From: a phage
Strand: one strand, 5' to 3'
Length of the DNA: 64,000 nucleotides
NCBI GenBank assembly: GCA_036253495.1
Contig: GCA_036253495.1_4125.1
Below are positions 1 through 62,131 of the stretch, in pieces. Position numbers and translations under genes: made by a program. The notes below the pieces were generated by a model. It saw only the letters and a list, made by a program, of their open reading frames with translations, had not been told where the DNA came from and searched no databases. The first letter of the stretch is position 1. The number at the start of each line of letters is the position of its first letter.

Positions 1-954
1 CCCGAATTTGATGTTCGTAATTTAGAACTATCAAAAATTTACTATTCAAACACACGTTTGAATATGTTAGATCTCATGAAAGATGAAATTCATTTTAAAA
101 ATATTCAGATTCGTGATTTACCAGTGCCCCCACTTGAGCGTGAATACGAAGCATGGAAAGAAGGTCGTCTTAAACCACGTCCAGAACTTGCAGTGGTTGA
201 AGTGCCAGCACCAATTGTTCTGACTAAAACACCAATTGATCCAGAAGATGAACGCATTGCGGATATCGAACAATGGATGGAATTTCCTGAAACTATTAAA
301 AAGGATTCTGTAAAAGTACTGGATTGGTTCGTAAACTTACCAGTATGTGCACAGGAAGTTGGTGTGAAGATTCAAAAAATTTCAGAGCGTCAATTGGACC
401 TTAATGATGCATTACATAAGCATAGTGATTATGTTAGAACATTAATGAATAACTTAACCACTGCACTTGAATCGTTATTCCCATTGAAACCAACATTTAC
501 ACAAAAACTGTTTGGTAAAGCTGATATAAAGGTTCAACAGGCCGATTTACCTAAAGTAATGAAAGCATTGAATGATGCAGTGAAATATGATACGAATAAG
601 TTTAGTGGTTTAACTTCATTGTTTAATGAAATTCGAACTGAAGTTCGTGATATTAAAGATGAATTAGAATACGGAAAAATTGGGTGTGAGTATGCTATTC
701 GTCGTTTGGATGATGCATTTGAATATGAACTGACTCTTGAACGTATCATGAAAATGAGCATTACCGCCGCAATGACTGAAGCTAGTATCGTTAATGTGAG
801 TAAACAGTATCAGATTGATATGAATAGAATGGTAGATATCCAAACTATTACTATTCCGTTGATTATCAATCGTTTACAGACACAAGTTGGAAAAGCAGTA
901 GACGCAGATACCGCCGCGATCATTCGCAACTTAGCTTACGGCGATAAAGAGTAA
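1..954 (+). CDS. hypothetical protein, 5' end truncated by window edge
   Basis: Frame 1 is open from position 1 to stop at 954; first ATG only at 64 with no RBS, so gene likely continues upstream. Confidence 0.5.
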   Translation, partial: PEFDVRNLELSKIYYSNTRLNMLDLMKDEIHFKNIQIRDLPVPPLEREYEAWKEGRLKPRPELAVVEVPAPIVLTKTPIDPEDERIADIEQWMEFPETIKKDSVKVLDWFVNLPVCAQEVGVKIQKISERQLDLNDALHKHSDYVRTLMNNLTTALESLFPLKPTFTQKLFGKADIKVQQADLPKVMKALNDAVKYDTNKFSGLTSLFNEIRTEVRDIKDELEYGKIGCEYAIRRLDDAFEYELTLERIMKMSITAAMTEASIVNVSKQYQIDMNRMVDIQTITIPLIINRLQTQVGKAVDADTAAIIRNLAYGDKE

Positions 955-4593: not shown

Positions 4594-4600
4594 GTATTTG

Positions 4601-4627
4601 GGGAGTACATTATTGTACTCCCTTTTT
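4601..4627 (+). terminator. intrinsic terminator hairpin GGGAGTACA-TTAT-TGTACTCCC plus T-run
   Basis: Perfect 9-bp stem 4601-4609/4614-4622 followed by TTTTT. Confidence 0.6.
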
Positions 4628-5744: not shown

Positions 5745-6098
5745 ATGTTGATTTACTTATGTGTGCTTTTGGTTTCATTGGTTGTAGCAGTATTAGTACT
5801 GAAAACTATTTCAACTATTCGTTCTAAAATTGATAAACATCAAGAAAATTCTGTTATCGATTTAGTTATGGATTTTCCTAAAATCAGTGCAGCCGTTGTT
5901 TTTGTTGTTATGTTATTTGGAACATACTGCGTAAAAGGCTACCTCTATGGTATGTATGATTGTAGCGTTCGTTCATATTCACAAGGTGTTGAAACTGACT
6001 ATAGCTGGTACTATGGTAAGTGTCGTTTTAAAAATGAACATGGTATTTGGGTAGATTTTGATAAACTACGCGGAACACCATCAGGTGATGAAGAATAA
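5745..6098 (+). CDS. small membrane protein
   Basis: AGGAGA RBS; two hydrophobic segments. Confidence 0.5.
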   Translation: MLIYLCVLLVSLVVAVLVLKTISTIRSKIDKHQENSVIDLVMDFPKISAAVVFVVMLFGTYCVKGYLYGMYDCSVRSYSQGVETDYSWYYGKCRFKNEHGIWVDFDKLRGTPSGDEE

Positions 6099-6592
6099 TG
6101 TTTGAATTTCCTGATGAACAACCAAAAAACTACATTGACTGTACTGAAGATGGATACACGCATATCAATATCTACAGTAAAGGGAAAACTAAGCTAGGGA
6201 GAGATTTATCTAATTTTTCTCCCCATAGCTTTACACTAGAACCATATGGATGGTTTCCTTCGGTTGAGTCTTTTTATTTCTGGTTCCTCACTGGACAACA
6301 GCATGAAGAACTTAGAAAGGTATCAGGAGCCGCAGCGAAAGCCGCTGCAAACAAATATATGCATGACCGTATAGAGATGACACCTGAGCGATTAAATGTA
6401 ATCCAGGATGCGATATGTGCTAAAATAATGCAGAATCCTGAACTTGCTGAACGATTGCGTAAAAGTACTCTGAAGTTTGAGCATTATTATTTGTATGGTG
6501 GTAAGATTATTGATGTTAGTGATGACCACCGTTGGTTTGTTCAGACCTTTGAGGATATCAGAACAGTACTGAAGGAGATGAATAATGGATAA
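6098..6592 (+). CDS. NADAR (YbiA-like) domain protein
   Basis: Motifs NIYSK, LSNFSP, WFPSVESFYFWF, ELRKVSGAAAKAAANKYM align to YbiA-type pattern as I recall it. Confidence 0.65.
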   Translation: MFEFPDEQPKNYIDCTEDGYTHINIYSKGKTKLGRDLSNFSPHSFTLEPYGWFPSVESFYFWFLTGQQHEELRKVSGAAAKAAANKYMHDRIEMTPERLNVIQDAICAKIMQNPELAERLRKSTLKFEHYYLYGGKIIDVSDDHRWFVQTFEDIRTVLKEMNNG

Positions 6593-6860
6593 AGTGAAAA
6601 TTTGTTGTCTTGAATGTGAGATGTTTGTCACTCCGTCTGATACAATGTTGACAATAGAGGAACAAGTCTTTCCATTAAGAGGTGGCTATATAAAATTACC
6701 AACACCATTTTATAGTACATCTTGTTCAATATGTGGTAATGAACTTGTTCTTCATGAGTTGAATTGCGTTAATATTATGGTTGTAAATGCAATTAGTTCG
6801 TATGCAAAAGAATTGGTTAGAAATGACAGTTCATTTGCACATTTATGGGGTTTCAACTGA
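6585..6860 (+). CDS. hypothetical Zn-ribbon protein (CxxC...CxxC)
   Basis: ORF with CCLEC and CSICG motifs. Confidence 0.5.
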   Translation: MDKVKICCLECEMFVTPSDTMLTIEEQVFPLRGGYIKLPTPFYSTSCSICGNELVLHELNCVNIMVVNAISSYAKELVRNDSSFAHLWGFN

Positions 6861-6861
6861 T

Positions 6862-7134
6862 ATGAATCATTCAAGAACTTGTTGGATATGTTACAATAAG
6901 GATGTAGATCATACTCTTGAACTTGAATATATGGAGATGAACTATGCAACAGACGTAAGATCATTTTCTGCTGGTCGTGTTATAATAAAAACACCACAAT
7001 ATCAGTGTTTGTGTTCAGTGTGTGGTGGGAATGGTGTATATCGCAATGAGGTTCAAATGGTAAATGATGCTATTGAGCTTTATTTTGGACAATATGTTTT
7101 GGATTTATATAAAAATGAACAAACTAACATTTGA
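6862..7134 (+). CDS. hypothetical Zn-ribbon protein
   Basis: ATG 6862; CWIC and CSVCGG motifs; likely paralog of upstream gene. Confidence 0.45.
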   Translation: MNHSRTCWICYNKDVDHTLELEYMEMNYATDVRSFSAGRVIIKTPQYQCLCSVCGGNGVYRNEVQMVNDAIELYFGQYVLDLYKNEQTNI

Positions 7135-7345
7135 TGCAACCCCAATAAATGAACTTTTAGTGCCAAGTGAAGGAAGCACTGTTAAAATGAACATGTACTG
7201 GATTGTCAAAGATGGAAACGTATTCAGACATAAAATAACAAAAGTATGGCAATGTAACAAAAATGAAAGTATTGTTAAGATGATAGCTGATACTGTAGAT
7301 GGTGCTGAAGTTGTTTTTATGCCGTATGCATATATTAAGGAATAA
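7115..7345 (+). CDS. hypothetical protein
   Basis: ORF, start uncertain. Confidence 0.4.
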   Translation: MNKLTFDATPINELLVPSEGSTVKMNMYWIVKDGNVFRHKITKVWQCNKNESIVKMIADTVDGAEVVFMPYAYIKE

Positions 7346-7510
7346 ACATGAAAAAAGAGTTGACAATATTCGTCATTCCAACTATAATGTTGATATTGGC
7401 TCTGGTGTTCCCACAATCACATGTGGTTATGCTTAACATCATAGAACTAATTTTATTGGTAATACACTGTATTGTCTGTTACTATTACATTAACAGTAAT
7501 GAGGATCGTG

Positions 7511-7933
7511 ATGAAGTATTATAAAATTCGTATCATTACCAGTTCAGGGGCATCAGCGTGGATTTTTTATGATCTTCCAGATTCATATACCATCGATGAT
7601 GTAAAAGATTTATACTACGAAGATAACAATTGGGTTTTTGATTTAGAATCCAAAAGTGTAGAGATTGATGAGATTACTGAACAAGAATACAAGATTGGCA
7701 CACAAGCTATGAAGTACTTTGAACGTAATCTTAAAATGTTACAGGAAAATGTGTTCCCTGTAAAAGAATGGGCAATTCTCCTTGCTAATTCCAATAAACC
7801 TGTTAGAATTGGTTATCCAAACTTTCATATGGTATATCGTATGAATGAAAATCGTGAATTGAGTTATCAATTTGATTACGATGCTGCTAAGTTTGGTGTT
7901 CTGAAATCGTTTGAAAAGGCATATCCAGTATGA
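7511..7933 (+). CDS. hypothetical protein
   Basis: ATG 7511 with GAGGA RBS. Confidence 0.5.
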   Translation: MKYYKIRIITSSGASAWIFYDLPDSYTIDDVKDLYYEDNNWVFDLESKSVEIDEITEQEYKIGTQAMKYFERNLKMLQENVFPVKEWAILLANSNKPVRIGYPNFHMVYRMNENRELSYQFDYDAAKFGVLKSFEKAYPV

Positions 7934-8265
7934 GTAAAGATAGCAAAGAGTTTATGTTGCGTTGTACTTGTGGTGATAAAAATGAACATTGTGTTCACAT
8001 TGCACAATTTGACTTGACAGAAGAACACGGTGATGATAAACTTGGTCAATGTACAGTCAGTATGCGTTTGAATCCTTTTCTTAAATGGTACAAGCGTGTA
8101 TGGGTTGCAGTGAAGTATGTTTTTGGTCGCAATGACTTTCATTACGTAGAAGCTGAAATTGATGTTGACATTCTTAAAGAAGTTGTGTTACAATTAGATG
8201 ATACACGAACTGATGAGGAAAAGAAAGACGCACGAGATAAACGTACTGATGTGAAGGTTTTATGA
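7930..8265 (+). CDS. hypothetical protein
   Basis: ATGA overlap with upstream gene. Confidence 0.5.
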   Translation: MSKDSKEFMLRCTCGDKNEHCVHIAQFDLTEEHGDDKLGQCTVSMRLNPFLKWYKRVWVAVKYVFGRNDFHYVEAEIDVDILKEVVLQLDDTRTDEEKKDARDKRTDVKVL

Positions 8266-8456
8266 ACGTCGAGTTGATTGAAAAAAAGTACTGTACAAAT
8301 TGCAATACAGCGTATACAATACAAGGTATGTTAGTTTGTACAACATGTCAGGCAACAGAAACAGCAACATTTTTGGTTGATGACCGATTCAGTGATTTGA
8401 AACAATTCAAAGCTAATCGCAATCTCCGTAACTTTAGTGATATGAATAAGGAATGA
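8262..8456 (+). CDS. hypothetical Zn-ribbon protein
   Basis: ATGA overlap; CTNC...CTTC motifs. Confidence 0.45.
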   Translation: MNVELIEKKYCTNCNTAYTIQGMLVCTTCQATETATFLVDDRFSDLKQFKANRNLRNFSDMNKE

Positions 8457-8458
8457 AT

Positions 8459-8890
8459 ATGAATCTTGAACAAGTAATCCGTAACAACCCATTCTTCGCA
8501 GAAAACCCTTCTCGTGTAATTGAAGCGATTAAAGTTGAAGAGCTAATGATTACCGTCAAATATAAAGAAGAAGGTGATGAAATTAGTAGCGTAGTATGTG
8601 CTCTTCGTGCACCTTTCCGTAAAGAAGCAGCTAAGAAACCAGCATATGTACTATCTATCTGCTTGGGTTGTGTAGTTAAACTGGTTGTTGATGAAAATAG
8701 TTTCAACATCAAGGTTGCACCAACTAATGATGATGAGAATGTTGATCTCAACTTTGATGGTGGGTTGCCAGAAGAAGAATTCTTCCAACAGTCACTTGTT
8801 GTAGATTTCCGTTCAGTAACTTATGACCATATCAAACTAATCAATGAAATGGTTGATATCGTCGCTAAGTTCGAAGAAGAAACCGCATAA
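8459..8890 (+). CDS. FQ-motif paralog family protein
   Basis: C-terminal PEEEFFQQSLVVDF...TYDHI module. Confidence 0.6.
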   Translation: MNLEQVIRNNPFFAENPSRVIEAIKVEELMITVKYKEEGDEISSVVCALRAPFRKEAAKKPAYVLSICLGCVVKLVVDENSFNIKVAPTNDDENVDLNFDGGLPEEEFFQQSLVVDFRSVTYDHIKLINEMVDIVAKFEEETA

Positions 8891-8903
8891 TATAAAAAGA
8901 AAT

Positions 8904-8930
8904 AAGGCTCTCAATCGGGAGCCTTATATT
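8904..8930 (+). terminator. candidate intrinsic terminator
   Basis: Stem AAGGCTC / GAGCCTT followed by T-rich tract. Confidence 0.4.
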
Positions 8931-8967
8931 CATTTGTTAAATAAGACAAAGTAAAGGAGTACTTAAT

Positions 8968-9519
8968 ATGATCGAACAAATTCAAAAATTCACGAACCAA
9001 ATTGTAAATTTCCTAGCAGATAAAGAAGGATTCAGTACTGAAGTTACACATCACGGTGTTAACCTTAACGTTACTGCACCAAGCGGTGATGTAACGTCAT
9101 ATGACATGTATGAGTTATTGCTTTATACAATGGCAGTACGCAAAATAGGTTCTGATATAGAGCTAAACATCAATACTGATGACAAAGGGAACAATATTTT
9201 TGCTATTAATACGGATGCTAAACTTGATGTAATTGCAGAAATTCAAAAAATTAACGAGTCATTTATTAATTTCCAACATGATACGATACAATCCGTTTTT
9301 ATTGGTCATCAAACATCTGAAAGTGTTTGCCCTTTTTGTGTAATGACTCTCTATAAGAATGGTAATTGGATGCGTCATGATTTGGCTAAAGCTGAAGTTC
9401 TTTATGCCATTACACATGGTATGAAACTTGAACTAGATGACAGTGCTTTTGTCTTTAAGAAACTAAGAAAATTAACACTAGATGTTCAGACTAAATTAAA
9501 AGAGCTTAATGATAAATAA
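8968..9519 (+). CDS. hypothetical protein
   Basis: AAAGGAG RBS upstream of ATG 8968. Confidence 0.55.
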   Translation: MIEQIQKFTNQIVNFLADKEGFSTEVTHHGVNLNVTAPSGDVTSYDMYELLLYTMAVRKIGSDIELNINTDDKGNNIFAINTDAKLDVIAEIQKINESFINFQHDTIQSVFIGHQTSESVCPFCVMTLYKNGNWMRHDLAKAEVLYAITHGMKLELDDSAFVFKKLRKLTLDVQTKLKELNDK

Positions 9520-9629
9520 TTATGCCAGTAATGGCTAACATATTATTATGTTATTTTTCCTCCCTTCTATAATAAAATTAATTTATTATATTTTCCATTT
9601 CTTATTGTACATTTTATATCTTTTCGTAC

Positions 9630-9652
9630 TGCCCCTCCCAGGGGCATTTTTT
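9630..9652 (+). terminator. intrinsic terminator
   Basis: Stem TGCCCC / GGGGCA followed by TTTTTT. Confidence 0.55.
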
Positions 9653-9667
9653 ATATTAGGATAAAGT

Positions 9668-10063
9668 ATGTTAGGTAGTAGAATAGGCAGCATCGTCACA
9701 ATTAAACTTTCTTATTATCTAAATGATTTTTCAAAGATCGATTTATCAAAATATCAGCAATCATCATTCTATTATGAATCATCTGAGCATAAATTTTCTA
9801 TCAGCAAAGAACCGGTAAAACTAAAGTATCAGGGGGTTGCAGAAAAGAATGAATTCGTGTATGATTATGGTATGGACAAAATTGTATTCACTGAATATAC
9901 TAAGGGTACAAGACCTACATGGAAAGCGGATTATCATAGAAAATCATTCATCAATATACATAAGTATCTTGATGAAGAGCATTACTTTCAACAGTTGCTT
10001 TTGGAGGATTTACCATTCACTATTGATGATCTAAAAACATTATTTAAGTACTATGCGATATAG
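9668..10063 (+). CDS. FQ-motif paralog family protein
   Basis: C-terminal EEHYFQQLLLEDL...TIDDL module. Confidence 0.55.
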   Translation: MLGSRIGSIVTIKLSYYLNDFSKIDLSKYQQSSFYYESSEHKFSISKEPVKLKYQGVAEKNEFVYDYGMDKIVFTEYTKGTRPTWKADYHRKSFINIHKYLDEEHYFQQLLLEDLPFTIDDLKTLFKYYAI

Positions 10064-10080
10064 TACTAAAGGAGATACAT

Positions 10081-10515
10081 ATGATTATATCATTCAAAAA
10101 AGTACTAAAATATTTCCAAAATAATAAACTTAAAGATATGAAAGTACGTGTCAATTTCTTTGCTAAAAGTGTGTGGTTTTGTACAGAGGATGAAATTAAG
10201 GTTAATGTAAGATTAACTGATTCATATGAAATAATTCGCCTGTACGCAACCATTGATGGTGTGGATACCAAGATATCATACATTTCAACTAGTGGTACGT
10301 TGATCATGAGTACGCGAGAAAATGAAACTGATACATTCAATGAAATTAAGATAGAAAACATCCATGAAATCACATCTGAAGAGATACTATTTCAACGTTC
10401 ACTTGTTGACAATGTACTAGATTTAACATATGATAATATCATACTAATTCACAAACTGCATGATGAGGCAAAAGCGTTTGCTCTAACCAAATTCGGAGAA
10501 TTGGATGATAAGTGA
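10081..10515 (+). CDS. FQ-motif paralog family protein
   Basis: AAAGGAG RBS; C-terminal SEEILFQRSLVDNVLDLTYDNI module. Confidence 0.6.
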   Translation: MIISFKKVLKYFQNNKLKDMKVRVNFFAKSVWFCTEDEIKVNVRLTDSYEIIRLYATIDGVDTKISYISTSGTLIMSTRENETDTFNEIKIENIHEITSEEILFQRSLVDNVLDLTYDNIILIHKLHDEAKAFALTKFGELDDK

Positions 10516-10930
10516 CCTGTTGAATATTGATATCACTAAACTAAAAATTACCGATTGTGGTATGTGTGTCAATGATAAACGTAAGATTGATTATGCTATA
10601 CTTACTGATGGCAATAAATCTCTTTGGTATGATAAATCTGTAGGAATTCAATTTAGACATAGTTCTAGTATTGAAAAGTATTCAGAGACATTAGATTACA
10701 TAAGTAATGGTAGTATTATCTATGTAAAATATTCAGAATCTGGAAAAATTACAAATACCATTACATTCAATGAAAAGAAGTACACTGAAGAAGAATTCTT
10801 TATGGTTAGTACTTTGTATGATTTTGGGTGTATCAGATACTGTGATTATGTTAAAACATTGGACATTTCCAATAAGATCTATTCGATACTTGAGCAATAT
10901 GAAAAGGAGATAGTAGATGACAGTAAGTAA
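10505..10930 (+). CDS. FQ-motif paralog family protein (divergent)
   Basis: C-terminal TEEEFFMVSTLYDF module. Confidence 0.5.
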   Translation: MISDLLNIDITKLKITDCGMCVNDKRKIDYAILTDGNKSLWYDKSVGIQFRHSSSIEKYSETLDYISNGSIIYVKYSESGKITNTITFNEKKYTEEEFFMVSTLYDFGCIRYCDYVKTLDISNKIYSILEQYEKEIVDDSK

Positions 10931-11327
10931 ATGTTACATTATCATTCGTGAAGACTTAGATATGCCAGTTGGGAAGCTTGCTGCTCAGGCGGGTCATGCG
11001 GTTGATTCTATCTGGTCCACGATTACCGTTGCTGGTACATCAATTCGTGGTTGTAATGCTGTTGGTGAGAACCCAAGAGATGAAGATGAAAAGATCCTGA
11101 ACGATTTCAGTACTTGGGTACAGGACGGTCGTCGCAAGATTATCTTAAAGGCTAAATCTGAAGAACAGATGCTTAATCTATTCGATAAAGTGAAAGCTGA
11201 AGGATTCACTGCAACTAAGATTCATGATTATGGATTCAACCATTTTGATGGTCTAACATTAACTGGATTCGTTGTGTTCCCGTGCACTGACGAAGTTAAA
11301 GCATTGAAAAGGGTAAGATTATGGTAG
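10917..11327 (+). CDS. peptidyl-tRNA hydrolase, PTH2 family
   Basis: AAAAGGAG RBS; motifs IIIREDLDMPVGKLAAQAGHA and C-terminal LTGFVVFPC...L resemble archaeal/eukaryotic Pth2. Confidence 0.8.
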   Translation: MTVSKCYIIIREDLDMPVGKLAAQAGHAVDSIWSTITVAGTSIRGCNAVGENPRDEDEKILNDFSTWVQDGRRKIILKAKSEEQMLNLFDKVKAEGFTATKIHDYGFNHFDGLTLTGFVVFPCTDEVKALKRVRLW

Positions 11328-11701
11328 ATGAATTGGATAGAAAAATTGATGCTTTGTATAAATCAATTGAAACCAATGAGGTTACTGTATATTATGGGAG
11401 ACAGAGTGTACAACAATCAAATTCATGTTTACGTTTAACCATAACCTTAGATTCAAGAGATAATCCATATACTTGTGTTTTCAAAGAAAGAAACACCATT
11501 GAATGGATTGGTTGGTATATAGATGACCGTCTTTCATACCTTTATGATTTTGAAAATTATGATAGTTCAGAAGTTTACTTGAATTCAACTGAAGAAGAAT
11601 TATTTCAACTATCATTAATTGAAAAACATGTAATGTCATATGACAATTTACAAAAAATCAAGTCAATAATGAATTATGCTCTATCTAAGGTAAAGCAATG
11701 A
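11321..11701 (+). CDS. FQ-motif paralog family protein
   Basis: C-terminal STEEELFQLSLIEKHVMSYDNL module. Confidence 0.6.
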   Translation: MVDELDRKIDALYKSIETNEVTVYYGRQSVQQSNSCLRLTITLDSRDNPYTCVFKERNTIEWIGWYIDDRLSYLYDFENYDSSEVYLNSTEEELFQLSLIEKHVMSYDNLQKIKSIMNYALSKVKQ

Positions 11702-12138
11702 ACATTAAATTAGTTAAAAAATATATCAGTACTTTTAATAAAATTAAATTTATCAACGATGGTTTGACTGATCCTGAAGAACAAATTAAAAATACCACAT
11801 ACGTAGGTCAGAATTGCTTTAAGATTATTATTGAAAATAATGTATTATCATTATCAGTTAATAATCTGGTATATGGTGATCAGATGTATATCGTGCACAA
11901 TGTTAATAACAATAACTTAGAAATTATGCTTCGTGATGATAATGTTATCAAAATATATCAGGTACAAAATGTAAGTGAATGCACTACTGAAGAGGGGTAT
12001 TTCCAGGAATCACTGGTTCAAACATTTAATATTGATTTCAAGGATTTAAAATATCTCATGAGTACGCTAACAAAAATGCGTTCAGCTATCTTTAACATCT
12101 TTTTTATTGATGAACAGCGACAAATGGATGTAAAATGA
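11698..12138 (+). CDS. FQ-motif paralog family protein
   Basis: ATGA overlap; C-terminal TTEEGYFQESLVQTFNIDFKDL module. Confidence 0.6.
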   Translation: MNIKLVKKYISTFNKIKFINDGLTDPEEQIKNTTYVGQNCFKIIIENNVLSLSVNNLVYGDQMYIVHNVNNNNLEIMLRDDNVIKIYQVQNVSECTTEEGYFQESLVQTFNIDFKDLKYLMSTLTKMRSAIFNIFFIDEQRQMDVK

Positions 12139-12557
12139 ACCCAAGAGATTGTTTTGATTTGTTAAAGGGAATGCCTATAGATTCACTAGTACCTGATAAT
12201 AGGTTTGAGCACAATCTTGATTTTCATGGTGAAAATTACAATGTATATATAAGCTACAGTGATGATGAGAGTGAAGAACTAACATTTGTGTTCATTTATA
12301 ATGTTTTTGAAGGTGATAAGTTGTTGGATGTTGAAATTGCATCATATACTGTCACAAATCAATACGTTATCGAAGATGATCTTCGAAACAAATTTGATAT
12401 AACACTGTACAGTACTGAAGAAGAGTTGTTTCAGTTAAGTACTATCAGTGATGTGTGCACAACTGTCGAAGAGTTAGCAGACGTTAAGAAAATCATTGAC
12501 ACTGTGTACAACAAGATATACAATACATTCCATATTGAGAAACAATTAAAAGGGTAA
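12135..12557 (+). CDS. FQ-motif paralog family protein
   Basis: ATGA overlap; C-terminal STEEELFQLSTISDV module. Confidence 0.6.
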   Translation: MNPRDCFDLLKGMPIDSLVPDNRFEHNLDFHGENYNVYISYSDDESEELTFVFIYNVFEGDKLLDVEIASYTVTNQYVIEDDLRNKFDITLYSTEEELFQLSTISDVCTTVEELADVKKIIDTVYNKIYNTFHIEKQLKG

Positions 12558-13237: not shown

Positions 13238-13388
13238 TAATCAATCTTATACAACGAGGAAACTCCAATTGAAATATGTAATGCTCCTTATTCCAGTGGG
13301 GTCATTCCGTGAAATTCTACCTACTGATGTACTGGATGGTCTTAAAAAGAGAAATCCACATAAGTTTTAAATAGTATTAAAAAGGACA

Positions 13389-13420
13389 ATACTGGGCGAA
13401 TATTCGTCCAGTATTTTATT
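13389..13420 (+). terminator. long hairpin plus T-run upstream of methyltransferase gene (terminator or attenuator)
   Basis: About 13-bp stem ATACTGGGCGAATA / TATTCGTCCAGTAT followed by T-rich tract. Confidence 0.5.
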
Positions 13421-13436
13421 TTATAAAGGATTATAG

Positions 13437-15335
13437 ATGGAACCGATACGTGTACTATCACTATTCAATGGGATGAGTGTTGGGTATATGGCCTTGCAAA
13501 GTGCAGGAATACCAGTTGAAAAGTACTACTCATCTGAAATTGATAAATTTGCTATAGCTGAATCCCAGGCTAACTTTCCTGATATCATCCAATTGGGTGA
13601 TGTAACTAGATGGAAAGAATGGGATATCGAATGGGACAAGATAGATCTTCTGATGGGTGGTTTTCCTTGCTTCCCAGCAGGAACCATGATCATGACAAAT
13701 GAAGGTCATAAAGATATAAAAGATATAAAAATTGGTGATATGGTTCTTACACACACTGGACAATACCAAAAAGTATTGAGTATTGGTAGCAAGATTGCAC
13801 CAACAAGAATCATCACAGGTCAGGGACATATACCAATTGAATGCACTGATAATCATCCATTTTATGCGAGAAAAATGAGCAAGAAGTGGGATAATGAAAA
13901 ACGACAATATGTTCGTGAATATACAGAACCTACATGGATCGATGCACATGAACTCACAGAAGAACATGCTATATGTAATGTTCGTTGTAATGTGAATTTT
14001 CAACATAACAAGAGTGAAAGCTTTTGGTATTTCATGGGTAGATTTATGGGTGATGGATGGACTTACAAAGTAAAACGACAAAATAGAAAAAATAGTTATC
14101 AATATCGTGTTTTTATTTGCTGTGCTCATGATGAATTTGATGAATTGGTTTCATGTTTTGATGGTATGAATATGAAATATAATTTTGTTAAAGAAAGAAC
14201 ATCTTATAAATTCTATATTTGTTCAAAAGAACTAGTTGAATTTTGTGAACAAATGGGTAAGGGTGCTTCAAATAAACAAGTACACCCCACACTTTTCACT
14301 GAAAGTATCGCTAATCAGAAAGCATTCATTGATGGTTATTTTGACGCAGATGGTCACCATGACAAGAAAGATGATTGTTTAAAATTTACATCAACATCAA
14401 AGAATGTTATTCTTGGTATACAACAACTAATTATGAATGTGTATGGTCGTCATTCTAACATAACATACTTTAAACCGTCTGAAACAAAAGTTATAGAAGA
14501 ACGTGTTGTTAATCAGAAGCCGTATTACGTATTAACATACAAAAAAGAAAAGCACCGAAAAGATGAAGCATTCTATGATGATGGGTCATATTCATGGGTA
14601 AAAGGTGTTAAATCGAACACCACAACCGGAGAATGGAAAACCGTTTACAATATTGAAGTTGCAGTAGATAACACATATACGGCGAACAATATTGTAGTTC
14701 ATAACTGCCAAGCGTGGTCAGTTGCTGGGAAACAAGGCGGTGTGAATGATCCTCGTGGTATGTTATTCCATACAATGGTTGATATTTACCAGCACATAAA
14801 AAGTCTCAATCCTAACTTGAAAGTTCTTTTTGAGAATGTTAAGATGAAGGAAGATTTCAAGGATTATATCAATGGCGTGTTGGAAATGACACCAATTTTG
14901 ATAAACTCCCAGCATTACACGCCTCACTTCAGGCAACGTTACTACTGGTACAGTACTGATAAGTTATTCATACCACCTGCAATATCCAAAGCCCCAAAGC
15001 TTCAAGATATACTTGATGATGGTTGGTACACAGACAGAACCGCTTCGTACTGTATTGATGCCAATTACTTCAAGGGTGGAGATCCGAATCAGTACTTCAA
15101 TAAGTCAAGAAGACAAATCGTTTTCAAAGACCCTGATATCAACAGGAACTTCCTGATTGAGAAGGGTAAACGAAATGTGGACTATCGACATTTGACAGTG
15201 CAAGAGTGTTGCATTTTACAGGGAGTTGATGTAAACTATTTCAAAGTGTCAAGTAACACACAAGCGTACAAAATGCTTGGTAATGGCTGGACAGCACCTG
15301 TTATAGAACATTTACTTCGTGATATATTCTTTTAA
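13437..15335 (+). CDS. DNA (cytosine-5)-methyltransferase interrupted by an in-frame intein
   Basis: N-extein ends GGFP; C-extein starts CQAWSVAG (together motif IV GGFPCQ); downstream ENV (VLFENV), RQR and LGNGWTAPV motifs. Confidence 0.85.
   Translation: MEPIRVLSLFNGMSVGYMALQSAGIPVEKYYSSEIDKFAIAESQANFPDIIQLGDVTRWKEWDIEWDKIDLLMGGFPCFPAGTMIMTNEGHKDIKDIKIGDMVLTHTGQYQKVLSIGSKIAPTRIITGQGHIPIECTDNHPFYARKMSKKWDNEKRQYVREYTEPTWIDAHELTEEHAICNVRCNVNFQHNKSESFWYFMGRFMGDGWTYKVKRQNRKNSYQYRVFICCAHDEFDELVSCFDGMNMKYNFVKERTSYKFYICSKELVEFCEQMGKGASNKQVHPTLFTESIANQKAFIDGYFDADGHHDKKDDCLKFTSTSKNVILGIQQLIMNVYGRHSNITYFKPSETKVIEERVVNQKPYYVLTYKKEKHRKDEAFYDDGSYSWVKGVKSNTTTGEWKTVYNIEVAVDNTYTANNIVVHNCQAWSVAGKQGGVNDPRGMLFHTMVDIYQHIKSLNPNLKVLFENVKMKEDFKDYINGVLEMTPILINSQHYTPHFRQRYYWYSTDKLFIPPAISKAPKLQDILDDGWYTDRTASYCIDANYFKGGDPNQYFNKSRRQIVFKDPDINRNFLIEKGKRNVDYRHLTVQECCILQGVDVNYFKVSSNTQAYKMLGNGWTAPVIEHLLRDIFF
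13668..14705 (+). other. intein (346 aa) with LAGLIDADG homing-endonuclease domain, inserted before catalytic Cys of the methyltransferase
   Basis: Starts Cys (CFPAGTMIM), ends VVHN followed by +1 Cys; internal FMGRFMGDGW and FIDGYFDADGH dodecapeptide-like motifs. Confidence 0.75.
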
Positions 15336-15350
15336 CCATTAGAGGCACAA

Positions 15351-16735
<1,385 letters not shown>

Positions 16736-26025: not shown

Positions 26026-27714
<1,689 letters not shown>

Positions 27715-27717
27715 TTC

Positions 27718-27873
<156 letters not shown>

Positions 27874-27901
27874 CAAAACGAAATGATAATAGGAAATTAA
27901 A

Positions 27902-28087
27902 ATGCAACTTTTAATTCTTTCAATATTGTATATTATTATAATGGTTCCTATATCAATACGTTTAATTATACTTGAACGATTTTTATCGAAACATGGAAAT
28001 AGATCTATGATATTTGTACCAATCGGGCTTATATTGTTTGGTATATTTGCATTTATAATGGGAATTAACGCTACATTCATTTCATAG
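27902..28087 (+). CDS. small membrane protein
   Basis: ORF with two hydrophobic helices. Confidence 0.45.
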   Translation: MQLLILSILYIIIMVPISIRLIILERFLSKHGNRSMIFVPIGLILFGIFAFIMGINATFIS

Positions 28088-28096
28088 GAAACAAAT

Positions 28097-28578
<482 letters not shown>

Positions 28579-28585
28579 AAGAACG

Positions 28586-28618
<33 letters not shown>

Positions 28619-28619
28619 C

Positions 28620-28675
<56 letters not shown>

Positions 28676-28676
28676 T

Positions 28677-28807
<131 letters not shown>

Positions 28808-28808
28808 A

Positions 28809-28883
<75 letters not shown>

Positions 28884-28926
28884 GGTTCAAGAAGAAAACT
28901 GGGGTTTTTAACCTAACGAGGTCAAT

Positions 28927-29069
<143 letters not shown>

Positions 29070-29070
29070 A

Positions 29071-29201
<131 letters not shown>

Positions 29202-59725: not shown

Positions 59726-59965
59726 ATGAAACTATCTTTTATACGTTTAGCAGAATTCTTCGGTACTGATATAATTACTTTACAACAAATTGCAGACAAT
59801 ACTTCATTAAGCACACAAGAAGTACTTGACTTAGATGTGATAGAGTGTGATAATACTTCTATCGATTATAAAGAAGGTCTTGTCGAAAAAGATAAGATTC
59901 AGGCTAAGATTAATGGTGCTGGACGGGTTCAGTACTGGAAAGGGGTTTTAAGTAATGCGTGTTGA
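59726..59965 (+). CDS. hypothetical protein
   Basis: GAGG RBS. Confidence 0.5.
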   Translation: MKLSFIRLAEFFGTDIITLQQIADNTSLSTQEVLDLDVIECDNTSIDYKEGLVEKDKIQAKINGAGRVQYWKGVLSNAC

Positions 59966-61289
59966 TATTAAAGTACCTTTTAAATGTGAACCACTGAAAT
60001 TTGTCCAAGATTATGAAATATCTAAAACTATCGAATTTAGTGAAACCGCTTCAAAACTTGATATTAGTAGGAAAATTTTAGGTGAAAAGTATCCAGATGT
60101 AATATGGGATGATTTCAATCCATATAATATGGAAAAAGATGAAATGTGTAAAGACGAAATTATTGGCTTTGTTCGTATGGGAGTTCAAAATCTAAAATAT
60201 TATGCATATATATGTCAAAAATGCTCGACAAATTCAAAACAAAATGGTTTAGGTATATTTTTTACATTAAAAAGATATATTAAAAATAAAATTACATGTA
60301 TGTGCTCAAAAACACCACTATATACAAATTATCAACGAACTATACAACTTCATAATAAATCTATAAGTTTAGGTTATGTGTTTATTGGATATAATAAAGA
60401 AAAACAAATAACTTCGGATGCTAAAATAAAACTAGGATGTTATAATCATGGTATGTGGGATACTATAACAATAAATTCGTATAACACCAACTCACGCGGC
60501 TGTTCAAAATGTGCTGGTGTTCATTCACCATCACAGGAAGAAGCAAATGAAAAAATAAAACAAATTTGTAATGAAAATAAATTAGTATTTCAACCTTTCC
60601 TATATAAAAATAATAAAACTAAAATTTTTGTAAGATGTTTGGTATGTAATGAATCATGGGAGTCAAACTATTTTAAACTTTATACCATGAAATATGGTTG
60701 CCAACGTTGTGTAGGAACAAAAAAGTTAACTACTGAGATTTCTACAGGAATTGTATCAGATTATTGTACAAAATATAAGTTGACTTTCATTCCATTTGTG
60801 TATGATAATAATAAGATGAAAATATCTCTACGTTGTGATATTTGTTCACATGAATGGATAACACCATTCAATGGTATTACTAATAGAATGGGGTGTCCAA
60901 GATGTAATCCAACTGAAGCAATACGTATTTCTAAAGATTTAGATCCATTAATAGATGATTTTCAGCCGGAAAAGAAATTCCTTGAACTTGGAAAGATGCG
61001 ATTTGATAGATTCAGTCAACGATTAAACATTCTGTTTGAATATGATGGGGAACAACACTTTATTTCCAATAGGGTTTGGCATTCTACTACATCTAAGTTT
61101 GAATCTTCTCGTGAACGTGACAGTATAAAAACAGAATACGCAATAAAAAATGGATATAACTTCATTCGTATTGCGTATTATGAAGACCATATTGGAGCAT
61201 TGAAATCTTTCCTTAAACTCATTGAAGAGAATCCAGGAAAGCAAATCGTACAGATCTATGGTGATGTTCAAATCTTAGACAAGAAATAA
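59955..61289 (+). CDS. putative homing-type endonuclease with tandem Zn-ribbon repeats and C-terminal Vsr/DUF559-like nuclease domain
   Basis: Repeated CxxC modules (CQKC, CSKC, CQRC, CPRC) in about 45-aa repeats; C-terminal FDRFSQRLNILFEYDGEQHF...RDSIKTEYAIKNGYNFIRIAY. Confidence 0.55.
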   Translation: MRVDIKVPFKCEPLKFVQDYEISKTIEFSETASKLDISRKILGEKYPDVIWDDFNPYNMEKDEMCKDEIIGFVRMGVQNLKYYAYICQKCSTNSKQNGLGIFFTLKRYIKNKITCMCSKTPLYTNYQRTIQLHNKSISLGYVFIGYNKEKQITSDAKIKLGCYNHGMWDTITINSYNTNSRGCSKCAGVHSPSQEEANEKIKQICNENKLVFQPFLYKNNKTKIFVRCLVCNESWESNYFKLYTMKYGCQRCVGTKKLTTEISTGIVSDYCTKYKLTFIPFVYDNNKMKISLRCDICSHEWITPFNGITNRMGCPRCNPTEAIRISKDLDPLIDDFQPEKKFLELGKMRFDRFSQRLNILFEYDGEQHFISNRVWHSTTSKFESSRERDSIKTEYAIKNGYNFIRIAYYEDHIGALKSFLKLIEENPGKQIVQIYGDVQILDKK

Positions 61290-61360: not shown

Positions 61361-62131
61361 ATGACCAGAGAAGCACGCAGCATTCAAATTCAGAAAAACT
61401 TCAACTCCATGATGGTTGCTCTTGAGTGTTTGCTCGATGATAGCAGTACTGTAAAAAGTATGGTTGTCAGCGGTGCTCCTGGTGTTGGTAAGACTTACAC
61501 CCTCTCTAAACGCCTCCAGAAAGCACATGACGCGGCAGAATGGAACGTAGCTACCATCAGTGGTAAAATGACCACTCTGGCTCTGTACGAAGTTCTGTAC
61601 AAGAATCGTCATAGCACCAACGTGTTAGTACTGGATGATATGGACAGCATCTTTGATTCAGAAGACGGTATGAACCTGCTCAAAGCAGTACTGGATAGTG
61701 GCAAGCGTACTGTTTCTTATATGACTAGCTCGAAGTATCTGAGCAGCAACGGTATCCCTAACAGCTTTGATTTTAATGGTCGCATCGTATTCATTACTAA
61801 CAAAGATTTAGCACTGAATGCTAAAGCTAAAACTAAAATGTCTGCTCACTATGCTGCTCTTATGTCTCGCTCTGTATACGTTGACTTACAGATCCAGACC
61901 AAAAGCGATATCATGATTCACATTGAGAACGTGATGAACCAGACCAACATTCTGGAATCTAAGGGTATTAACAGTAATGGTAGTAAAGCAATCCTGAACT
62001 GGATGTTGAAGCACGAAGATTCACTTCGTTCACCTTCACTGCGTATGCCACTGTTGATTTCGGCAGTATATAACAACAACCCATACGATTGGGAAGAGCA
62101 ATGTGAAAACTTGTTCCTGGAGAAAAATTAA
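61361..62131 (+). CDS. P-loop NTPase (AAA-like ATPase)
   Basis: Walker A GAPGVGKT, Walker B VLVLDDMD; GC-richer codon usage (CTG, CGT, ACC) than neighbours. Confidence 0.65.
   Translation: MTREARSIQIQKNFNSMMVALECLLDDSSTVKSMVVSGAPGVGKTYTLSKRLQKAHDAAEWNVATISGKMTTLALYEVLYKNRHSTNVLVLDDMDSIFDSEDGMNLLKAVLDSGKRTVSYMTSSKYLSSNGIPNSFDFNGRIVFITNKDLALNAKAKTKMSAHYAALMSRSVYVDLQIQTKSDIMIHIENVMNQTNILESKGINSNGSKAILNWMLKHEDSLRSPSLRMPLLISAVYNNNPYDWEEQCENLFLEKN

Follow-up and report, generated by a model that had tools for sequence, protein, structure and literature searches.

Do two genes on the same strand of a phage genome, one for a NADAR-domain protein and one for a PTH2-type peptidyl-tRNA hydrolase, act together against host defences? 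The question arises from contig GCA_036253495.1_4125.1 (NCBI GenBank assembly GCA_036253495.1), analysed here as a stretch of 64,000 nucleotides, hereafter the window. An initial annotation had read its open reading frames (ORFs) 6098..6592 and 10917..11327 as a counter-defence pair within an anti-defence toolkit. Both family assignments were borne out by our analysis, while the pairing and the toolkit were not. We consider it probable that the two genes are accessory and independent of each other, not a system, and that with them this Asteriusvirus jumbo phage encodes a NADAR-superfamily enzyme and an active PTH2 esterase, respectively.

The window comes from an Asteriusvirus jumbo phage of about 350 kb. 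Escherichia phage A4 (355.5 kb, genus Asteriusvirus) is 99.3% identical to window positions 6000-11400, and other Asteriusviruses (121Q, PBECO4 and others) match positions 7175-9600 only, at approximately 75% identity. GC content is 31-38% throughout. The annotated genes around the two ORFs lie nearly all on the + strand and are almost all labelled “hypothetical” in A4. Both ORFs are genes in A4, A4_101 (“hypothetical protein”) and A4_114 (“peptidyl-tRNA hydrolase”), and neither is due to chance, since both have many homologues. The ATG of the first overlaps the stop codon of the preceding gene as TAATG, and a Shine-Dalgarno sequence (AAGGAGA) is found 7 nt 5′ of the start of the second. The two genes are:

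6098..6592, + strand: NADAR-fold protein of 164 aa, member of the phage-rich clade phrog_652, related to T4 gp30.3/AdfN

10917..11327, + strand: PTH2-type peptidyl-tRNA hydrolase of 136 aa

The first ORF is not recognised by standard models, because it remains below every curated sequence threshold. Pfam gave no match at E ≤ 0.1, including PF08719 and PF08010, the NCBIfam model TIGR02464 (YbiA-type) reached an E-value of 0.01 with 16.1 bits, below its cut-off of 73.7, and a PDB search with the single sequence returned no match. PHROG 652 (function not known) was matched at 5e-43. When a profile of 15 family sequences was searched against PDB, only YbiA (1e-3), the NADAR of P. nicotianae (PnNADAR, 4e-3) and that of G. 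lovleyi (0.26) were found, and with a profile of 70 sequences PnNADAR improved to 1.3e-5. The connection to T4 gp30.3 (AdfN) was obtained from both sides: hhalign aligned it to the family profile with 92.9% probability (E 3.6e-7), the hidden Markov model of the clade recovered it at 4.9e-6, and phmmer with gp30.3 as query detected the same domain in several clade members (best E 8.8e-7), two of which also match the T4-type model PF08010. The predicted structure, with which BFVD was searched for similar folds, is confident and compact and has the NADAR alpha+beta fold. Judged from its sequence, the protein is a relative of the T4-type phage NADARs, with the same fold, in a separate clade.

That NADAR enzymes remove ADP-ribose from DNA, as invoked in the initial annotation, has a published precedent in phage: the orphan NADAR gp30.3/AdfN of T4 strips DarT1-made ADP-ribose off DNA (PMC11257639). 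Every NADAR family so far tested removes ADP-ribose from guanine and acts on base-linked ADP-ribose in nucleic acids, and DarTG1 is countered by three different phage NADARs. Four families are distinguished in the literature (NADAR, YbiA, DarG1 and T4-type phage). The tested phage proteins NADAR-Bas32 and NADAR-Bas60 have been likened to archaeal and non-YbiA bacterial NADARs and probably fall outside the phrog_652 clade.

Residues conserved throughout the superfamily are a Ser, a Glu and a Lys seven positions after this Glu (Glu+7) (PMC11543638, PMC11257639, PMC12945103). It is the Lys that binds the diphosphate; both the E. coli C7 NADAR (K95) and AdfN (K43) depend on it, the K95A and K43A variants being inactive (PMC11543638, PMC11257639). 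A third catalytic position is occupied by Glu in YbiA-type, by Asp in DarG1-type and by His in phage NADARs (PMC11543638, PMC11257639, PMC12945103). In the window gene, the corresponding positions are:

6209..6268, + strand: codons Ser38 (LSNF motif) to Glu57 (FxSxE motif), superfamily-wide residues kept

6287..6289, + strand: codon of Leu64 at Glu+7, the canonical position of the diphosphate-binding Lys, aligned with T4 K43, PnNADAR K50 and E. coli C7 K95

6338..6340, + strand: codon of Lys81, conserved in 70/70 clade members and aligned with PnNADAR K75 (8bau alignment)

6482..6484, + strand: codon of His129 (HYY motif), third catalytic position, conserved in 69/70 clade members and aligned with the His of T4 gp30.3

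Whether the catalytic residues survive a proper alignment, the point on which the initial annotation had made its reading depend, thus has a divided answer: S38 and the distal-ribose-contacting E57 are present, and one of the three superfamily residues, the Glu+7 Lys, is lost. Conservation was counted in 70 family members, which share 30-46% overall identity with the window protein, four close orthologues excepted. Both E57, which aligns with T4 E36 and PnNADAR E43, and N39 are invariant (70/70). His22, Asn24, Gly34, Asn39, Lys81 and Lys109 form the clade’s own set of invariant or near-invariant residues; H22, N24, K81 and K109 are missing from T4 gp30.3. PnNADAR K75, the counterpart of Lys81, has been equated with E. 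coli C7 K115, a residue required for DarT1 rescue (PMC11543638). The Glu+7 column of the clade reads L17, K16, G11, S10, T6 and A5, so the position is not conserved, and lack of the Lys characterises the clade as a whole. With their counterparts in 121Q, RaK2 and K64-1, 78-84% of residues and every clade invariant are shared, a sign that purifying selection maintains a functional site. Since the loss is clade-wide, the other conserved positions are strictly kept and these orthologues are so similar, an enzyme that still works, with its ADP-ribose pocket rearranged, is better supported than a dead one.

Among the closest characterised systems is T4 gp30.3/AdfN (PF08010, an orphan anti-DarTG1 DNA ADP-ribosylglycohydrolase), to which the clade is sister-like: the window protein and AdfN are both stand-alone phage proteins of about 150-165 aa built on the NADAR core, with an LSNF-type motif, the Glu and, at the third position, His. 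In contrast to AdfN, the window protein matches neither PF08010 nor PF08719, has Leu in place of the essential K43, and is modelled with an additional beta-hairpin behind the His (HYYVYGGK; strands 126-139). From the DarG1-type antitoxins (G. lovleyi 8BAT, E. coli C7 NADAR) it differs by His instead of Asp at the third position, by the absence of the Glu+7 Lys and of the extra N-terminal elements, and by the lack of an adjoining gene for DarT or another ADP-ribosyltransferase. Indeed, no DarT1 ADP-ribosyltransferase gene adjoins the ORF (Pfam on flanking ORFs; PADLOC), and the flanking ORFs contain neither an ADP-ribosyltransferase nor any other significant Pfam domain. The differences from E. 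coli YbiA and PnNADAR (PF08719) are 17-19% identity, Glu rather than His as third residue, and K50 and R79 equivalents that are not conserved in the window protein.

The most likely reaction of the NADAR-like protein is cleavage of an N-glycosidic ribosyl linkage within an adduct or derivative of ADP-ribose. In this reaction, the distal ribose would be positioned and activated by Glu57 and His129, and the diphosphate might be held by Lys81, Lys86, Lys109 and Arg35 instead of the missing Glu+7 Lys. The leading candidate substrate is ADP-ribosyl-guanine put on phage DNA by DarT1-type toxins, and we propose reversal of this modification tentatively. Several points weigh against it. Glu+7 is Leu64, with Lys at this position in only 16 of the 70 clade members, and the equivalent of PnNADAR R79 is Asn85, next to Lys86 (most relatives have Lys or Arg at 85). 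As a consequence of the lost Lys, anti-DarT activity is less certain than in canonical NADARs, and canonical hydrolysis of ADP-ribosyl-guanine could be weak or absent. Further, compensation by K81, K86 or K109 is what we infer from helix periodicity and conservation. Finally, the fusions of the clade (DUF4326, SLOG, Macro) and its cREC and Metallophos neighbours suit DNA repair no better than the processing of soluble ADP-ribose derivatives.

This last point leads to the reading which competes best. According to it, the NADAR-like protein acts not on DNA, but on soluble molecules derived from ADP-ribose or nucleotides, such as immune signals that are variants of cyclic ADP-ribose, other ADP-ribose conjugates or toxic metabolites, as part of a network with Macro, SLOG, DUF4326, Nudix and cREC proteins. 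We consider it possible, with no more confidence than DNA repair; other adducts or inactivity take up the remaining probability. An exhaustive profile search gave 2,066 cluster representatives at E ≤ 1e-3, many of them multidomain. Partner domains in 82 multidomain members were DUF4326 (31), YAcAr-SLOG (21), DprA-like SLOG (13), DUF488-N3a (5) and Macro (2), with a canonical NADAR, Metallophos and a Rv2179c-like exoribonuclease in one case each. The same architectures have been ascribed to phage NADARs by Iyer, Burroughs and Aravind, who proposed mainly soluble ADP-ribose derivatives as substrates (PMC9503650, PMC7824862). Distant clade members are found near cREC (PF20274), SocA_Panacea and Metallophos on a 952-kb metagenomic scaffold and near an IU-nucleoside hydrolase, a nucleoside 2-deoxyribosyltransferase, ribonucleotide reductase and Metallophos on a 130-kb contig; these two neighbourhoods suggest nucleotide or ADP-ribose processing. 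In phage SKML-39, the gene lies near HU, topoisomerase II and MazG, which overlaps it, and in ST32 near SSB, contexts which suggest early expression or DNA metabolism; the MazG overlap also suits a soluble substrate. The loss of the canonical diphosphate Lys itself suggests an altered ligand. However, the tested NADAR families all act on base-linked ADP-ribose in nucleic acids, no NADAR has been shown to act on such a soluble substrate, none of the partner domains adjoins the gene in the window, and the N-terminal motif resembles that of the NADAR of G. lovleyi, a DarG1 antitoxin according to the papers.

A related, rather unlikely possibility is that the phrog_652 clade constitutes in effect a fifth NADAR family with a rewired site, whose natural substrate may not have been assigned to any NADAR. 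Candidates would then be an immune signal derived from ADP-ribose, or an ADP-ribose adduct of RNA or of a base other than guanine.

The clade was found by tblastn in 533 of 50,697 phage records, including Asteriusvirus, Alcyoneusvirus, other RaK2-like giants, Ackermannviridae, Vibrio and Ralstonia phages, and Chaseviridae. Among the matches listed, nearly all members are annotated as “hypothetical”. In Escherichia phages Turkey3 and Turkey5 (PQ471515.1, PQ471516.1; 2024-25), an orthologue of 80-82% identity is already named “NADAR domain-containing protein”; the other annotated records among the 60 matches listed read “hypothetical protein”. The clade is almost never annotated, and it is far more widespread than the phage NADARs shown to counter DarTG1. 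What may interest specialists is that a NADAR clade so widespread in phages, and for the most part unannotated, does without the lysine that tested NADARs depend on. One tested member would tell whether the anti-DarT1 function reaches the clade or whether its substrate differs. NADAR and PTH2 genes as such are already known from jumbo phages, and current concepts are unchanged.

The gene at 5745-6098, directly 5′ of the NADAR-like ORF and overlapping its start with the stop codon, has a small product with hydrophobic segments that look membrane-like. The orthologue of this product in K64-1, gp221 (55% identity; 1933-2295 of the locus), bears the RefSeq label “WWE domain”, a possible hint of ADP-ribose binding, which we rejected as Pfam gave no match even at E ≤ 10.

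The assignment of the second ORF to PTH2 was confirmed by PF01981, with 66.8 bits against a gathering threshold of 23 (E 2.5e-18), and its model has the PTH2 fold. The residues K20, D104, T114 and T116 are invariant in ten sequences of the phage branch, of which nine are metagenomic homologues and one is the window protein, and in M. jannaschii Pth2. In S. solfataricus Pth2, K18, D86 and T90 reportedly have active-site roles, a result attributed to Fromant and colleagues (2005), and E. coli Pth is said to be replaceable by archaeal Pth2, according to Rosas-Sandoval and colleagues (2002). The enzyme would hydrolyse the ester bond of peptidyl-tRNA or N-blocked (N-acyl) aminoacyl-tRNA and free the tRNA. 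By this activity it could supplement the host Pth1 under the heavy translation of a 350-kb phage, and it would also blunt any insult that accumulates such tRNAs. Two observations count against a simple equation with the archaeal enzyme. The NCBIfam equivalog cut-offs are missed (NF003314, 64.9 versus 126; TIGR00283, 63 versus 82), which places the protein in a divergent phage branch rather than among archaeal orthologues. In addition, unlike archaeal Pth2 (P. horikoshii 1WN2, M. jannaschii 2ZV3), it contains an insertion:

11016..11108, + strand: phage-specific insertion, about 20 extra residues within residues 34-64, opposite gaps in archaeal Pth2; a protruding helical hairpin in the model

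In the model, helix 1 (18-48) and the next helix (55-69) are lengthened by the insertion into this hairpin. A C-terminal KALKRVRLW tail is conserved in the phage branch and common to phage homologues only.

PTH2 was detected by tblastn in 44 phage records. Among the matches listed, the carriers are nearly all jumbo phages, with RaK2 and K64-1 at 59% identity and GAP32, CBB, BF, Yen9-04, Munch, XacN1 and others at lower identity; the jumbo-phage relatives of the window gene include RaK2 ORF188, K64-1 gp231 and GAP32_382. The only Escherichia phages with PTH2 among these matches are A4 and EJP2, and most other Asteriusviruses, unlike A4 and the window, have none. In 121Q, synteny is kept and an unrelated ORF of 136 aa occupies the PTH2 position; this gene, 121Q gene 84, was examined as a PTH2 on account of its equal length and position and rejected. 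A4 and the 121Q-type phages, with and without PTH2 at the same syntenic position, hence provide a natural comparison for the role of an archaeal-type PTH2 in phage.

Could the hydrolase be mainly a specific counter-measure, which strips the peptide off peptidyl-tRNAs stranded by anticodon nucleases or deacylates N-acetyl-aminoacyl-tRNA made by GNAT toxins? We think this rather unlikely. Its accessory distribution, in A4 and EJP2 and absent at the syntenic spot of the 121Q type, is what would be expected of a host-range or defence gene. RaK2, whose PTH2 was reported in 2013 alongside a CCA-adding enzyme, a polynucleotide kinase and an RNA ligase, stands for a type of phage with tRNA-repair genes. 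Iyer et al. (2021) ascribed to jumbo-phage PTH2 peptidyl-tRNA hydrolysis in ribosome rescue following tRNA cleavage (PMC7824862), and Pth detoxifies aminoacyl-tRNA acetylated by TacT, with overexpressed Pth suppressing the toxin. On the other hand, no linkage to RNA ligase, kinase or Tpt1 is conserved in the window, our literature search gave no role of tRNA-acetylating toxins in phage defence, and a general boost of tRNA recycling accounts for the same data. A counter-defence role for PTH2 is thus possible, as something we infer. In GAP32 and EJP2, PTH2 has a tRNA gene no more than 0.6 kb away.

As for the supposed pair, the two genes are 4.3 kb apart in the window, with 13 ORFs between them as well as two terminator-like hairpins:

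8902..8927, + strand: terminator-like hairpin, 11-bp stem with 5 GC pairs

9630..9646, + strand: second terminator-like hairpin, 7-bp stem with 5 GC pairs, followed by TTTTTT

Since these hairpins intervene, the genes are predicted to belong to separate transcription units. Their distance varies among phages: it is 4.3 kb in A4 as well, 3.2-3.6 kb in RaK2 and K64-1, 9.8 kb in Munch and 7t3, and 24 kb in GAP32, CBB and BF. The NADAR-like gene often occurs alone; among the matches listed, 32 Escherichia phage records have it without PTH2, and in the totals given above its clade exceeds PTH2 by far (533 versus 44 records). A coordinated pair in an anti-defence island, one member reversing DNA ADP-ribosylation by DarT and the other countering defences that target tRNA or translation, is therefore improbable, the more so as no defence or anti-defence profile was matched. 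In its favour, both genes belong to a series of small accessory ORFs on one strand, TacT-acetylated tRNA is detoxified by Pth, and every enterobacterial giant phage with PTH2 among the matches listed also has the NADAR-like gene. However, this co-occurrence reflects the common ancestry of RaK2-like phages. The distant Xanthomonas phage XacN1 (AP018399.1, 170084-178458) contains a second, apparently independent case, with PTH2 (ORF295) 2.4 kb from a canonical YbiA-like NADAR in which the Glu+7 Lys is present (ORF289). Genes for a NUDIX hydrolase (ORF287) and a phosphoesterase (ORF293) belong to the same locus. Intriguing as the coincidence is, one more case is too little for a link.

Least probable is a catalytically dead NADAR-like protein, a binder or sponge or one that has lost its function, as the missing essential Lys and the Asn at the R79-equivalent position might indicate, because Glu57, His129, Lys81, Lys109, Asn39 and Gly34 are (near-)invariant in 70 diverse members, the Lys is absent clade-wide and hence by family trait rather than decay, and the model is confident and compact.

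Beyond the two genes, the window did not present the anti-defence toolkit proposed initially. Profile searches of the larger ORFs revealed no anti-defence island, the tested ORFs were otherwise unknowns, and PADLOC reported nothing for either protein or, for that matter, for T4 gp30.3. With its run of unknown accessory genes, the region is what one usually meets in a jumbo phage. Further strong terminator-like hairpins occur at 4600-4623 and 13388-13415, so that four in total split it into units. A perfect sigma-70 consensus (12/12; TTGACA, 17 nt spacer, TATAAT) is present at 7360-7388, along with five 11/12 matches, all on the + strand. Besides a sigma factor, profile searches identified:

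1025-2167: TelA

2233-2934: Rv2179c-like 3′-5′ exoribonuclease

13437-15335: C5 cytosine methyltransferase (Dcm) split by a Hint/LAGLIDADG intein

59955-61289: protein with CapR homology domain and treble-clef zinc finger, adjoining the following gene

61361-62131: AAA/STAND-like ATPase

The intein, consisting of Hint and LAGLIDADG homing-endonuclease domains, sits after the GGFPC motif of Dcm and is absent from the orthologues in 121Q, K64-1, GAP32 and EJP2, which are approximately 860-890 nt long. ARAGORN predicted five tRNA genes at 27076-29191, tRNA-Gly(TCC), Ser, Met, Asn and Thr; the A4 record (304019-307087) annotates Ser, Ser, Met, Asn and Thr. As the positions of the Ser, Met, Asn and Thr tRNAs are shifted by about 1.3 kb, at least one indel relative to A4 must lie between 13 and 27 kb.

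The window also contains an expanded paralogous family of 18-19 + strand ORFs of about 120-170 aa, collected with a hidden Markov model built from 7 members. A profile of 17 paralogues had no match in PDB, and a homologue search with one of them (11321-11701) returned just 3 close matches. The C-terminal motif TEEE[YLF]FQxS[LT] is shared, with its Phe invariant. Members are located within 8453-12557, and others start near 15896, 16724, 22436, 26671, 29199, 29632, 31200, 31658, 32071, 33088, 47667 and 53189. They are scattered over many different PHROGs, all of unknown function, and some of them flank the PTH2 gene as well as the tRNA cluster.

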